The notes: a model not told the origin generated them from the letters alone. A stretch of 64,000 bases of DNA from a virus (IMGVR_UViG_3300021256_000057:64001-128000), one strand, 5' to 3'; numbered from the stretch's first letter, positions 1,745 through 64,000 are shown. Numbers and translations: made by a program.

Positions 1745-3577
1745 TCAACCACCTATCAGAAAATCAAACAGTTCTGGATGCTTCTTAATATCCAGAGAAT
1801 CATCTACCATGTAATCGGAGATTGCCTGCTTATCTGTCAGTATCTTGTAAACTGCTTCATCGATCGTGTCTTTTGTGATAAGCGTATACACGTTCACAGG
1901 TTTACTCTGTCCGATGCGGACAAGTCTATCCTCTGCTTGGATACGAGCTGCATTTTGCCATGGGATGTCATATAGAACACAGTTATTTGCAACAGTAAGT
2001 GTATGATTTACGCCAAGAGCGCCGATAGTACCGAGCATGACCTTGTACTCTGGGTTATTGATGAACACCCTCTTATGCTTCTGGCGCTCTTCCTCTGTCA
2101 TTGTACCAGTATAGCAAGCAGTCTTGTGCCTTTTGGATACATACTTGTATACTGTTCTAAGTGGCTCGACCCAGTTGGAGAACACAACTATCTTCTCGCC
2201 ACGTTCAACTGCATCGTCAATGATCTCTAGGAGTCTTGTAAGTTTTGCGTTCATGGATAAATAGTGCGGGTCATCGACTTTTATCTTGTCGTTGACCAGC
2301 TCCGGGCTACCATTGACCTGCCGGAGACGGAGCATCTGGGCTAGAGGATTCATTGAAGATAGAATCTTTGACTTATCTACCATGATACCTTGCTTGACCT
2401 TCTGGTATAGATCCATCTGCACAGGGGTATTCTCAACATACTCTGTATAATAGATCTTTGGAGGTAGATCCTTGAGGACATCAGTCTTTAGTCTACGGAG
2501 CATATGGTCATGAAGAAGCTCCTTGAGATATGGAATGTTTTTATATCCTACTACTTCATGATCGTCATATCCGCCAAACATACAGAACGACTGGCACCAT
2601 GCCCAATAGCTCTTTACAGAGTGTCCATCTACCAGTTTTAATGGTGTATATACATCGGTAGGCCGATTGACGATAGGTGTTCCTGTCATCGGGATCCACT
2701 CTGCATTTTTGTTCGTTCGCTTCTTGATATCCAAAATGATTTTACCCTGCGTGGATTTTGGGGATGCATTTTTATGGATCTCATCTATTGCTATCATACT
2801 GATCTCACCAGAGTTTATCATCTCAACGATCCTATCGGCGAGAACATATTTTCTACCTGACTTTGTGCGGAGTGCTTCAATATTTGTAATGATAAAATAC
2901 GGCAGTTCCGGCTCGTTTATATTACCATACATGTGGCAGGTTACAAGGTCTTGAAGTTTCTTATCGCCACTTGTGCTATAGTTGTATCCGCCGGTTCTTC
3001 TTGGTCTTGACCCTAAAATATATGCGATCTCGGTCCCGTTTGTGTGGGTCTCAATATCCTCTTTCCAAGAAAATTTTGCAGAGTTGACACAGCAGATGAT
3101 GAGACAATGCTTGCACCCATTCACTTTACGCCGATAAAGCGCGTAGTTCATGACTTCAAGCGTCTTGCCACACCCCATGTCATCTGCAAGGATGAAGCCC
3201 TTACCAAGTTTAGATTTGCTGTATTTAAGGAAATCAAGCTGATGCGGATATAGTGCAGCTCCATCTTTTACATACTGATCCATATCAGAGATATCAATGT
3301 CTGGGATAGCATCTAGTTTCGTAGCACCTAAAGTAGAGTTCTCATTCAACCTCTCACCAGAGTTTATCTGCACCTGGGTCTCATATGGTGTATCTTTTAT
3401 CGTATTAAGGAACCAACCAAGATGCTCCTTTGGGATAGTCCATATCTTTTTATCGACATTCCATTGTCTGCCGGGAACGTCTCGAAGCATATTGATCAAG
3501 GCTCTATCATATTTGAACCTGATCTCATAAACAGGACCATTTTCAATTACACTTATCATAAAATCACCACCTATCAA
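1745..3577 (-). CDS. SNF2-family (HARP/SMARCAL1-like) helicase/ATPase
   Basis: ADDMGCGKT (Walker A), IDEIH (DExH), MTGTP, QAEDRLVRIGQ (motif VI); N-terminal HARP-like segment; probable start 3559. Confidence 0.92.
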   Translation of the reverse strand: MIGGDFMISVIENGPVYEIRFKYDRALINMLRDVPGRQWNVDKKIWTIPKEHLGWFLNTIKDTPYETQVQINSGERLNENSTLGATKLDAIPDIDISDMDQYVKDGAALYPHQLDFLKYSKSKLGKGFILADDMGCGKTLEVMNYALYRRKVNGCKHCLIICCVNSAKFSWKEDIETHTNGTEIAYILGSRPRRTGGYNYSTSGDKKLQDLVTCHMYGNINEPELPYFIITNIEALRTKSGRKYVLADRIVEMINSGEISMIAIDEIHKNASPKSTQGKIILDIKKRTNKNAEWIPMTGTPIVNRPTDVYTPLKLVDGHSVKSYWAWCQSFCMFGGYDDHEVVGYKNIPYLKELLHDHMLRRLKTDVLKDLPPKIYYTEYVENTPVQMDLYQKVKQGIMVDKSKILSSMNPLAQMLRLRQVNGSPELVNDKIKVDDPHYLSMNAKLTRLLEIIDDAVERGEKIVVFSNWVEPLRTVYKYVSKRHKTACYTGTMTEEERQKHKRVFINNPEYKVMLGTIGALGVNHTLTVANNCVLYDIPWQNAARIQAEDRLVRIGQSKPVNVYTLITKDTIDEAVYKILTDKQAISDYMVDDSLDIKKHPELFDFLIGG

Positions 3578-3834
3578 AACAACTGATTTCTTTTGTTTTT
3601 AGTTTTTGGAGCTGGCCTTTTACCATCCACGATAGATGATACCTCAGACTTACTTGCTTTAACAGACTTGCCATCGACCTTGAGCTTATGTCCAGTCTCT
3701 TCAAGATACTTCAAATCATTTGTACTAGGGATACACTCTTTGTACTCTGTGTGGAACACAATGCGACCATCCCGATCAAAAACTTCAAATTTCACATAGA
3801 TCACCTCTATCATATATAACGAATTTGAACACAA
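3574..3834 (-). CDS. small hypothetical protein
   Basis: ORF coupled to the SNF2 gene; probable GTG start near 3795 after GAGGTGA. Confidence 0.6.
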   Translation of the reverse strand: MCSNSLYMIEVIYVKFEVFDRDGRIVFHTEYKECIPSTNDLKYLEETGHKLKVDGKSVKASKSEVSSIVDGKRPAPKTKNKRNQLF

Positions 3835-3866
3835 AAGAAACTGCCCATCCTATGTGGACGGGCAGT
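3832..3866 (-). terminator. intrinsic terminator after endolysin
   Basis: ACTGCCC..GGGCAGT stem followed by a T-rich tract on the minus strand. Confidence 0.75.
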
Positions 3867-3882
3867 CTATGGATGTGATAGG

Positions 3883-62240: not shown

Positions 62241-62839
62241 TTGTTATTCACCGCCAATTCTGGAGCTGACCGTTTCAAACGTATACTCTTTACAACATGT
62301 GGTTCACCGAACATCGTAGGTGGACGGAGATCAATGACAGCTCCAGTAGATTCGATCGTAACTGTCTGTGCAAGCAGCTTTCTCCGTATCCACTCTTTGC
62401 TTTCTTTTAAGCAAGCCTTTGCTGATGCAGCATCGAACACATCATCTACATTATCTGTACCTAAAGGAAGTATCAGATCATGGATATCTTTTATATCCGA
62501 TGTTGGTCCTATGACAGCTCCTAGCATATAGGAGTACACCCAATTGGGTATTACATAAGTCCCCTTGGTCTCGATATATTGATCAATATGATATTGGATA
62601 GCAGTAACAAGTTTCGCATGTGCGGTACTCAATTCTAGGTCAGCCTCATCTGGGTTACTATAATTCACCCAAAAGAAGCCCTCAAAAGATGGACTAAACG
62701 TATCACCAGTCGCGTCCTGCGAGTATTCTAGTTTGCGAAACGCTTCAAACATTTCTTCATCCGATATCAGATGATAAGGATAATTTGGCAGATATCCTTG
62801 ATCGATATATCGTATCTTTATTACATCATGAATAAACAT
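62237..62839 (-). CDS. hypothetical protein
   Basis: ORF in operon. Confidence 0.7.
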   Translation of the reverse strand: MFIHDVIKIRYIDQGYLPNYPYHLISDEEMFEAFRKLEYSQDATGDTFSPSFEGFFWVNYSNPDEADLELSTAHAKLVTAIQYHIDQYIETKGTYVIPNWVYSYMLGAVIGPTSDIKDIHDLILPLGTDNVDDVFDAASAKACLKESKEWIRRKLLAQTVTIESTGAVIDLRPPTMFGEPHVVKSIRLKRSAPELAVNNN

Positions 62840-62852
62840 AGGACAGCTCCCA

Positions 62853-64000
62853 TCATACCATTAGTGTGGATCCTGAGAAGTAATGGAACGAGTTTGTTGA
62901 CCAGGCATCAATGAACTTTGGATCTGTATCTTCAACGATACTTGCAGTAATGAAGAACGCGATCGAGCCAGGAGTTATCGTATTCTCATATGCATCATAG
63001 CTCGGTGTAAGCAAAGAGAACCTAGTGTCCTGCACCATATAGCTAGATGGGTTTGTTAGTACATAGGATGCAATAAACTGGCCTGTCACCTTTATCTGGT
63101 TAGGCATCCTCCTCTTTGGGTAGTAGAGGCTAGGTCCTTGCGGCAATTCAAACGATGTTCTGATGATAAAGTTACCAGTGCGGACATTTGATGTAGATGC
63201 GTTTCTCACAAGAACGGATGCGCCTACAACATCGCCGTTTGACTTGAATGTGATGCTCTTTAGAGCTACCATGAAGTGATTATCATTAGGAGAAGATGTA
63301 CTCCAGGATTCACTTGTAGTGACATTCAGCTCCTCATAAACAGATGTGCTTGCGCTGCATATTACTTCCATACCATCTACAACGAGATCCGGATCAGTCA
63401 GAGCAAACCGCTGATACCACAAGGTCATGTCTACGATATTCGTAAGATAGTTAATGATACTGCTATCATAATAGAGACAAGAGCGATATAGATTGATATT
63501 AGGCGTACCAGATATCTTATTCTCAACACGGATACGAGAACAGTCAGAGATATTGATCGTAATATTACTGCTTGCGTTCCCATATAGATGTAGATATACA
63601 GAGGTATTAAATCTGCTGTCTATATCGTAGATGTCGATCGTCTCTGCATCATCTGAATCAGTGACTGTCACATTGATATGGATCACATTTGGATTTTCTG
63701 CGTTCTGGATCTGATTTGCGTTAGGGAATGCTACACGCTGATTTACATACTCATTGAGGTACGCCTGTACTTCTTCATTTGAGGCACCAGAGGGTGTTGT
63801 AAAGTCCTCACCGAGCTGATATGCCAATACACCAGTACGGAGCAGAGCGTAGTCCATCAATCGCAGATGACCATCTTCATCCAGATATACATAGCCATAG
63901 TCTGTTGCAGTATCTGGTACGTTCAGAAATCCGCCAACGATATCTTCTGAAGCTACTGGAATAGGACCAGACAATACGATCGCATCAGAATACTCTTTTG
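62853..64000 (-). CDS. virion structural protein, 5'-partial
   Basis: Frame remains open from 63974 to the window edge. Confidence 0.7.
   Translation of the reverse strand, partial: KEYSDAIVLSGPIPVASEDIVGGFLNVPDTATDYGYVYLDEDGHLRLMDYALLRTGVLAYQLGEDFTTPSGASNEEVQAYLNEYVNQRVAFPNANQIQNAENPNVIHINVTVTDSDDAETIDIYDIDSRFNTSVYLHLYGNASSNITINISDCSRIRVENKISGTPNINLYRSCLYYDSSIINYLTNIVDMTLWYQRFALTDPDLVVDGMEVICSASTSVYEELNVTTSESWSTSSPNDNHFMVALKSITFKSNGDVVGASVLVRNASTSNVRTGNFIIRTSFELPQGPSLYYPKRRMPNQIKVTGQFIASYVLTNPSSYMVQDTRFSLLTPSYDAYENTITPGSIAFFITASIVEDTDPKFIDAWSTNSFHYFSGSTLMV

Follow-up and report, generated by a model that had tools for sequence, protein, structure and literature searches.

The window analysed here is a 64,000-nucleotide stretch of viral DNA (IMGVR_UViG_3300021256_000057:64001-128000), and the element under study is a short word, GGAGCTG (CAGCTCC on the other strand), that recurs along it as a field of exact copies. 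The window comprises bases 64001-128000 of a genome (G000) of 183,567 bp with 41.7% GC, whose two ends overlap by about 131 bp, so that the map closes on itself. Genes were called heuristically. Those encoded include a major head protein, a prohead protease, a baseplate wedge protein, a tape measure protein and a T4-type portal, as well as a split PolA, a clamp and clamp loader, DnaB, RecA and an SbcC-like ATPase. G000 is a large divergent myovirus-type rumen phage, and no close phage relative was found for it at the DNA level. Just outside the window lies a gene fusion whose ATPase half shares 96% identity, and whose GH25 half shares up to 88% identity, with rumen Ruminococcus proteins. The host is probably a rumen Ruminococcus, an assignment that rests on this one transferred gene.

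Table 1. Features referred to in the text. Positions count from the first base of the window unless marked as genome positions.
Feature	Position	Strand	Remarks
Field of 95 GGAGCTG(nnC) copies	2297..63333	both	part of the rich domain, genome 30.1-140.8 kb
TnpB / IS605-family ORF	5666..6808	-	zero motif copies
SAM-lyase-like protein, weak Pfam match	7056..7694	-	co-occurs with the trait; 61% identity in G007 and G009
Three tandem paralogous BspA-type leucine-rich-repeat genes (285-294 aa)	7785..10427	-	motif-free gap 7585-10983
Unannotated 182-aa protein	11689..12237	-	co-occurs with the trait
Intrinsic terminator, 15-bp stem	18601..18636	-	closes the motif-free fibre unit; AACCTTATATA at 18580 then opens block A
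Two fibre-like ORFs, 802 and 654 aa	18727..23170	-	motif-free gap 18471-23045
Convergent pair, 14-bp hairpin	38525..38556	both	between convergent genes; U-runs on both strands; -24.9 kcal/mol, z -7.0
Candidate reader, 221 aa, I-TevI-type DNA-binding / NUMOD-HTH module, HNH-family C-terminal region	44927..45592	-	motif-bearing genomes only
Candidate reader, XRE-family HTH, 114 aa	46269..46613	+	motif-bearing genomes only
Second TnpB / IS605-family ORF	47262..48359	+	zero motif copies
Convergent pair hairpin	48502..48526	both	U-tail on - strand; -21 kcal/mol, z -6.5
Convergent pair hairpin	50091..50118	both	without clear U-tail; -25.5 kcal/mol, z -5.9
Convergent pair hairpin	54044..54072	both	without clear U-tail; -24.4 kcal/mol, z -4.9
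Perfect extended quasi-palindrome TCGGAGCTGTCCGA	62191-62204	-	exact copy
Candidate reader, C5-cytosine methyltransferase, 654 aa	genome 30310-32274		neighbours: second C5-methyltransferase ORF, HNH nuclease gene

GGAGCTG is over-represented at the DNA level

A sequence-only reading of the window had estimated about 85 copies of the word against about 4 expected. The excess proved stronger than claimed: 95 exact copies were counted, compared with 6.52 ± 2.56 (maximum 11) in dinucleotide-preserving shuffles. Across the genome there are 146 copies, and a first-order Markov model predicts 17. The flanks are non-random, as had been proposed. C occupies position +9 in 97 of the 146 copies, and the word is therefore written GGAGCTGnnC. 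It is asymmetric, not palindromic, and a minority of copies extend to the quasi-palindrome TCGGAGCTGTCCGA, among them the perfect instance reported at 62191. When viral contigs were scanned for this 14-mer, only single-copy, chance-like matches were returned, and the enrichment seen at some loci was a GC effect.

A word of this kind might arise from codon, dicodon or peptide bias, for example from Glu-Leu or Gly-Ala pairs. Two of its frames do give common dipeptides (G-GAG-CTG and GGA-GCT-G). Such bias accounts for the apparent matches in high-GC bacteria and in three related phages, where GGTGGAG (G006), GCTGCTG (G008) and GCAGCTG (G010) were rejected as frame-0 Gly-Gly or Ala-Ala coding effects. 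In G000, 115 of the 146 copies lie inside open reading frames (ORFs), in both orientations as the earlier reading had it (58 sense, 57 antisense). They are not confined to one reading frame. Five of the six frames are used about equally, three of them antisense (sense 26/2/30, antisense 18/19/20), and the near-empty sense frame would call for Cys, Trp or a stop. Coding sequences hold 109 copies. Shuffling synonymous codons, with proteins and codon usage kept, gave 19.8 ± 3.9, and shuffling codon order gave 12.5 ± 3.6, so that the observed number stands more than 20 standard deviations above both. Intergenic copies are enriched too. Among positions at which the word could be written synonymously, 26% carry it in the motif-rich domain described below, compared with 2.5% in the motif-poor domain, which has equal codon usage and no excess; the corresponding figures for control words were 1-8%. 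Frame use, shuffles and the writable-position test thus refute a coding artefact, to which we give practically no weight. The claim of a selected cis-signal is borne out to the extent that GGAGCTG is a DNA-level signal, either selected or driven.

Orientation carries no large-scale pattern. Along the genome it switches 76 times (68 ± 5.8 expected), with no polarity, switch point or runs, and sense and antisense copies are balanced in each block of the rich domain. The overall spacing of copies is Poisson (coefficient of variation, CV, 1.02-1.06), and the per-strand CV ranges from 0.65 to 0.93. Twenty of the 21 one-mismatch neighbours of GGAGCTG occur near expectation. The exception, GCAGCTG, is absent because it contains CAGCTG, a palindrome purged from this genome.

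Some copies coincide with expression signals. The six said to occupy Shine-Dalgarno positions (5184, 11591, 12243, 30805, 56367 and 62844) were all confirmed and precede a start codon by 4-9 nt. Four inverted pairs had been described as terminator stems. All four exist and fold with energies of -21 to -25.5 kcal/mol, but a clear U-tail accompanies only those at 38.5 and 48.5 kb (Table 1). The hairpin at 38525..38556 is probably a bidirectional terminator.

The word is confined to one contiguous domain

The enrichment had been called window-wide, and it does hold across the window. It is not genome-wide, however, and ends abruptly at genome positions 30.1 and 140.8 kb. The rich domain between these edges (111 kb) contains 139 copies, whereas the other 73 kb contains 7, against 6.8 expected. 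This poor domain carries the replication genes, the portal and the terminase, and is core, not accessory, DNA. The proposal that resident DNA accumulates the motif is not supported in that form, as it does not explain a 73-kb poor domain with core replication and packaging genes.

Within the rich domain, block A (genome 30-82.5 kb) extends from the methyltransferase gene to the head genes at about 0.8 copies/kb, and block B (genome 87-140.8 kb) covers the tail module at about 1.8 copies/kb. Both minus-strand block starts (genome 82.6 and 140.8 kb) consist of a strong intrinsic terminator followed by the promoter-like AACCTTATATA. The first copy of block A stands at window 18464. The fibre genes make up the largest motif-free gap within the rich domain (4582 bp; about 0.5 gaps of this size expected), and the other large gaps hold a TnpB element, the three BspA-type genes and the second TnpB (Table 1). 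As the sequence-only reading had noted, the two insertion sequence elements, represented by TnpB/IS605 ORFs, and the fibre genes contain zero copies. These gaps indicate that mobile or often-exchanged DNA is without the word. The BspA-type genes of the head/cargo region are probably recent acquisitions. A third TnpB/IS605-family ORF elsewhere in the genome (144252-145433) is likewise free of the word.

We compared the two domains by composition, restriction sites and ancestry. Their trinucleotide compositions correlate at r = 0.985. Four 6-bp palindromes, CAGCTG, AAGCTT, TTCGAA and GTGCAC, have 0 copies in both (about 58, 34, 32 and 25 expected). Protein distances to ten relatives are equal for block A, block B and the poor region (differences 0.7, -1.8 and -1.5 points; standard deviation about 4). 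The rich and poor domains share ancestry and restriction-site purging, and the genome is not a chimera. AGTACT occurs once in the genome, and GAGCTC, CTGCAG, CTCGAG, GGTACC and GAATTC are strongly depleted. This palindrome-purge profile is not common to the relatives, which points to heavy, specific restriction pressure in the host of the phage.

Two further explanations were considered. That GAGCTG is a sink for purged CAGCTG and GAGCTC was rejected: too few sites were purged, the purge extends over the whole genome as the word does not, and neither the flanking G nor the C at +9 would be explained. A model in which copies mark a pac-proximal DNA end, with density rising toward the sharp edge, was set aside because the sharp edge differs between lineages and lies 23 kb from the terminase gene, and because the low-density edge is sharp too.

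AACCTTATATA(T/A) occurs as 14 sense intergenic copies, of which 11 are in the rich blocks and one follows each block-opening terminator. Its sites include window 18580 (genome 82580), 29661, 58840 and 60714, and genome 134578 and 140760. An internal copy, within the gene for prohead protease and ahead of that for the major head protein, is kept in the relatives G007 and G009. AACCTTATATA may be a late promoter of the clade. A second promoter-like word, ACTCGTTATA(AT), has about 29 copies genome-wide, all sense and 4-79 nt upstream of start codons, often right after a T-run. The rich and poor domains both contain it (for example at window 11621, 12291, 14559, 36762, 44619, 46064, 50066, 58785 and 60752), and its variant ATAACGATT has 22-23 copies in the relatives G008 and G010.

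Related phages carry variant words, and the word is not enriched in candidate hosts

Eleven related genomes were taken in full. In two of them the iterated word is GAGCAGG, with 43 copies in G007 (8.3 ± 3.0 expected) and 26 in G009 (4.9 ± 1.8 expected), and its extended form is YRGAGCAGGT. The copies lie on both strands and in five frames, in one contiguous domain only, with random orientation and no switch point. This domain is homologous to block A of G000, and its sharp edge falls within the prohead protease gene, at the exact start of the largest internal gap of G000. Genes homologous to G000 37-47 kb are outside the domain in G009 and without the word, so that the restriction follows position, not genes. 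A 27.8-kb relative, nearer to G000, carries GGAGGAGCTGG 22 times, and GGAGCAGG is carried by two further contigs. The variant words share a GAGCWG core and represent a clade trait with a drifting word. No word was enriched on both strands in eight relatives (five of them complete), nor in the baseplate-gene neighbourhood of 16 relatives.

G007 and G009 have 13 of 28 alignable sites in common, where 6.2 would be expected (p = 0.004). G000 and the 27.8-kb relative keep the density but have only 1 of 17 positions in common. Turnover of positions at a kept density marks a word under renewal, as opposed to one left to decay as a fossil. In G007, G012, G013 and G014 there is a moderate excess, on both strands, of the palindrome TCCGGA and of 7-mers that extend it (z up to 17.7), with 62 copies of TCCGGAA in G013 against 9 expected. 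The clade may have in TCCGGA another iterated word, this one palindromic.

The suggestion that the motif be sought in candidate host genomes gave a negative answer. In five candidate hosts (Ruminococcus/Oscillospiraceae), the true host being uncertain, GGAGCTGnnC is not enriched and occurs at 0.04-0.12/kb, compared with 0.88/kb in the phage domain. Pooled Ruminococcus coding sequences contain 50 copies, with 62 expected. Among 301 genomes of the same family, the densest reach about 0.5/kb; these have 62% GC, with copies in a single Glu-Leu frame and at only 1.4-1.9 times the shuffle expectation. With neither the candidate hosts nor the family showing the signal, it belongs to the phage.

Candidate readers of the word

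Ten G000 genes have homologues in both other motif-bearing genomes, G007 and G009, but lack them in all eight motif-less ones. One encodes the large C5-cytosine methyltransferase of Table 1, which is present in 3/3 motif-bearing and 0/8 motif-less genomes; nine other genes have the same pattern, and few independent lineages are involved. All its catalytic motifs are intact. A repeat-containing variable region of about 360 aa separates motifs VIII and IX, a layout that matches the architecture of multispecific phage methyltransferases with multiple target-recognition modules. Its place in G000 and G007 is the low-density edge of the rich domain, with transcription running into the domain. Compared with G007, the catalytic N-terminus shows 79% identity and the rest 41%, as expected had the specificity changed. 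A search of viral contigs with this enzyme found unrelated enzymes only, at 39% identity or less.

The G007 version of the large C5 gene is split after residue 73 by about 1 kb of DNA, possibly an intron or a gene insertion. Six DNA methyltransferase genes are present in G000, two of the C5 type and one each of the N6_N4, EcoRI-like, N6_Mtase and Dam-like D12 types. The methyltransferase loci are at genome 22108-24655, 29608-32274 and 153525-155009 and at window 33530-34387. A Major Facilitator Superfamily transporter gene (genome 20893-22107) adjoins methyltransferase genes in the motif-poor domain.

Also among the co-occurring genes are those for the I-TevI-type, XRE-family helix-turn-helix (HTH) and SAM-lyase-like proteins (Table 1), a MazG and three unknowns. 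Protein-atlas look-ups for two unannotated co-occurring proteins, one of them the 182-aa protein of Table 1, gave no usable lead.

Two other genes may be mentioned. A GH25 muramidase with three CW_7 cell-wall-binding repeats (window 3883-5025), probably the functional endolysin, has two copies of the GGAGCTG word inside its gene. A 794-aa ORF with an intein splicing domain (genome 163142-165526) adjoins the portal gene and is probably the large terminase containing an intein.

A proposed phage-encoded reader and its rivals

The enrichment of GGAGCTGnnC is real and lies at the DNA level; it is domain-restricted, host-independent, lineage-specific and actively renewed. These properties require a process that acts on DNA, is blind to orientation, maintains copy number over position, is specified by the lineage and is limited to modules, which favours a phage-encoded, sequence-specific reader. 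We infer that a protein reads GGAGCTGnnC. That the reader is the C5-methyltransferase is a guess, and so is the use of its mark, whether module-specific protection, repair-strand marking or expression control. Our tentative reading, in which our confidence falls somewhat short of even, is that GGAGCTGnnC is an actively maintained, orientation-blind recognition word with a phage-encoded reader, the leading candidate for which is the methyltransferase at the domain edge, which would make the word HIP1-like.

In this reading, the reader would recognise the word on double-stranded DNA regardless of its orientation. Selection would act on copies per kb within gene modules, keeping sites at about 1-2/kb, and not on individual sites. 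Copies would then settle at the cheapest places, namely synonymous positions in any frame, Shine-Dalgarno sequences (GGAG plus CTG) and terminator stems. Reader and word would co-evolve, so that sister lineages would differ around the GAGCWG core. The word would serve as an epigenetic mark about once per kb, with a logic like that of HIP1 but asymmetric, phage-encoded and module-confined.

In cyanobacteria, the presence of HIP1 (GCGATCGC) and of alternate HIPs tracks a particular orphan methyltransferase, and the mechanism is only a model (Elhai 2015, PMC4390886). As with HIP1, the word studied here is short, occurs about once per kb in any reading frame and differs between lineages. HIPs, however, are palindromic, genome-wide and cellular, whereas GGAGCTGnnC is asymmetric and confined to modules of a lytic-type phage, and the biased one-mismatch variant pattern reported for HIP1 is not seen.

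Several observations weigh against a methyltransferase as the reader. The link to a HIP1-like methyltransferase, which the sequence-only reading had listed among its options, is supported circumstantially by the presence of the C5 enzyme and its place at the domain edge. It is confounded by ancestry, since nine other genes share the same presence and absence, possibly by common descent, and as few as one or two evolutionary events may underlie the correlation. The one-mismatch signature is missing as well, with no depletion of the C-to-T neighbours (GGAGTTG 9 copies against 6-10 expected, GGAACTG 16 against 11-23). Only if the ends of the 85%-complete G009 contig join does its methyltransferase lie next to the rich domain and read into it. 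A multi-module C5 architecture is typical of anti-restriction enzymes aimed at short palindromes. A methylation mark also leaves the restriction to 60% of the genome unexplained. Nor is the rich domain one promoter class, as AACCTTATATA is also present in motif-poor regions of G000 and G007.

A wider proposal, somewhat unlikely in our judgement, is a 'genome address code', in which a fast-evolving phage reader and a co-evolving 7-11-bp word, at 1-2.6 copies/kb in virion-gene modules only, would tag these modules for a module-specific process. The tag would be epigenetic or a bound protein, and the process one that the replication/packaging module does not undergo. Its uses could be late-phase protection, repair-strand choice, recombination with co-infecting relatives or expression control.

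The reader need not be a methyltransferase. The copies could be dispersed sites bound by a protein that governs transcription or chromosome organisation module by module (such as a silencer coat, an activator, a roadblock, or a matS- or Noc-like marker) and that would work on the head/cargo and tail transcription units, a variant of the favoured reading that we hold unlikely. In its favour, block edges are terminator-plus-promoter junctions, and the XRE HTH and I-TevI-type proteins occur in motif-bearing genomes only. Domain markers such as matS, read by MatP in the Ter macrodomain, and the Noc and SlmA sites, which are absent near the terminus, also confine a word to a contiguous part of the chromosome and define a domain for a DNA-binding protein. 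Those sites, however, are palindromic, number tens per Mb and belong to bacterial chromosomes, whereas the phage word is hundreds of times denser. Moreover, 1-2.6 sites/kb inside ORFs is far above any known regulator, the tail units of G007 and G009 have the same promoter word without the motif, and the motif-poor state in G009 of the block homologous to G000 37-47 kb means that enrichment does not follow genes. Another likeness is to the stoperators that cluster A mycobacteriophages have at about 25-30 places in their own genome as asymmetric repressor sites of 13 bp. There too the sites are many, their sequence co-varies with the reader between sub-lineages, and the reader, for which G000 offers candidates, is phage-encoded. 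Stoperators differ in being intergenic, oriented with transcription, about 10 times sparser and devoted to lysogenic silencing. The copies described here are mostly in ORFs and randomly oriented, which is not the single-orientation, intergenic pattern of stoperators.

A Chi-like role is distinctly unlikely. Chi-like sites would attenuate or redirect a helicase-nuclease, either host AddAB/RecBCD or a phage enzyme of the SbcCD/RecA type, and would thereby protect replicating or broken phage DNA or make the structural modules hotspots of recombination. Like known Chi sequences, the word is a G-rich 7-8-mer; it is specific to lineages, which would fit a specificity that follows a nuclease, its density is high, mobile DNA is without it, and the phage encodes an SbcC-like ATPase and RecA. 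Chi (RecBCD/AddAB), KOPS and SRS are likewise G-rich, over-represented, species-specific 5-8-mers that mark 'self' DNA. They are, however, oriented to replication and enriched in the host chromosome, and neither holds for GGAGCTGnnC: Chi is read from one side, and no frame-independent enrichment was seen in the candidate hosts or the 301 family genomes. The Chi proposal of the sequence-only reading therefore founders on polarity and host enrichment. For its other options, a packaging signal or a decoy site, nothing specific speaks. In addition, 73 kb with replication genes is not enriched though equally exposed, and the motif-less relatives have the same recombination genes.

The word could also be functionless and written by non-adaptive molecular drive, that is, by biased repair or gene conversion, for instance methylation-linked and of the very-short-patch type, or triggered by a nuclease during co-infection. 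A repair ratchet of this sort was proposed for HIP1 by Elhai (PMC4390886). Turnover of positions at a kept density fits such drive, mobile DNA without the word fits a time-dependent ratchet, and a methyltransferase and an HNH gene stand together at the domain edge. Yet we consider drive improbable, because no one-mismatch neighbour is depleted, C-to-T forms included, because it should act genome-wide and leaves equal-age core genes of the poor domain untouched, and because site conservation between G007 and G009 is about twice the expectation.

More improbable again is modular ancestry, in which rich blocks were imported from a lineage with the word throughout its genome, or poor blocks replaced from one lacking it, and the field is a historical footprint. 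The block edges do fall at module boundaries, which are sites of phage recombination, and the often-exchanged fibre genes are without the word. On the other side, blocks A and B and the poor region are equidistant from all ten relatives, and the unusual palindrome purge is found in both domains and not in the relatives. The same domain with another word in G007 and G009 would need parallel replacements, and G000 and its closest visible relative have a common density, not common positions.

A primase or replication start-site array is highly improbable: in block A, copies on a given strand are spaced slightly too evenly for a Poisson process (CV 0.65-0.84), but overall spacing fits one, 40% of the genome shows no enrichment, even around the replication genes, and the helicase and adjacent replication genes are common to the eight motif-less relatives.

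Uptake sequences of Pasteurellaceae (USS) and Neisseriaceae (DUS) resemble the word in many respects. They occur about once per kb in both orientations, frame-independently and at low-cost coding positions, form terminator stems as inverted pairs, are depleted in recently acquired DNA and have lineage dialects. They differ in that they belong to competent bacteria and are read by the uptake machinery, whereas the candidate hosts here are without the word. We know of no phage uptake step that selects part of its own genome. Taken one by one, the classical Chi, uptake-sequence, primase-array, stoperator, modular-ancestry and coding-bias accounts each fail at least one direct test.

Implications

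Highly iterated short words are among the clearest cases of selection on DNA as text. To our knowledge, the well-studied ones (Chi, uptake sequences, HIP1 and KOPS) are all cellular, essentially genome-wide and tied to a host machine. The signal described here is owned by a virus and not inherited from its host, its spelling changes between sister lineages, and it stops at module boundaries within one co-evolved chromosome. It also comes with an internal control that is rare for such words, since a single genome with equal codon usage and restriction pressure carries the word in one part only. With GGAGCTGnnC, GGAGGAGCTGG and YRGAGCAGGT as naturally occurring variants, a reader can be paired with the site it recognises. 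About one quarter of the synonymous opportunities in rich-domain genes are constrained at the DNA level, which matters for codon-based host prediction and for phage recoding. Should the address code be real, no sequence tag that a virus encodes itself and restricts to part of its genome would have been described before it. A reader that proved to be the methyltransferase at the domain edge would open the HIP1 puzzle to experiment in a small replicon; any other reader would mean that large phages contain an undiscovered module-specific process.

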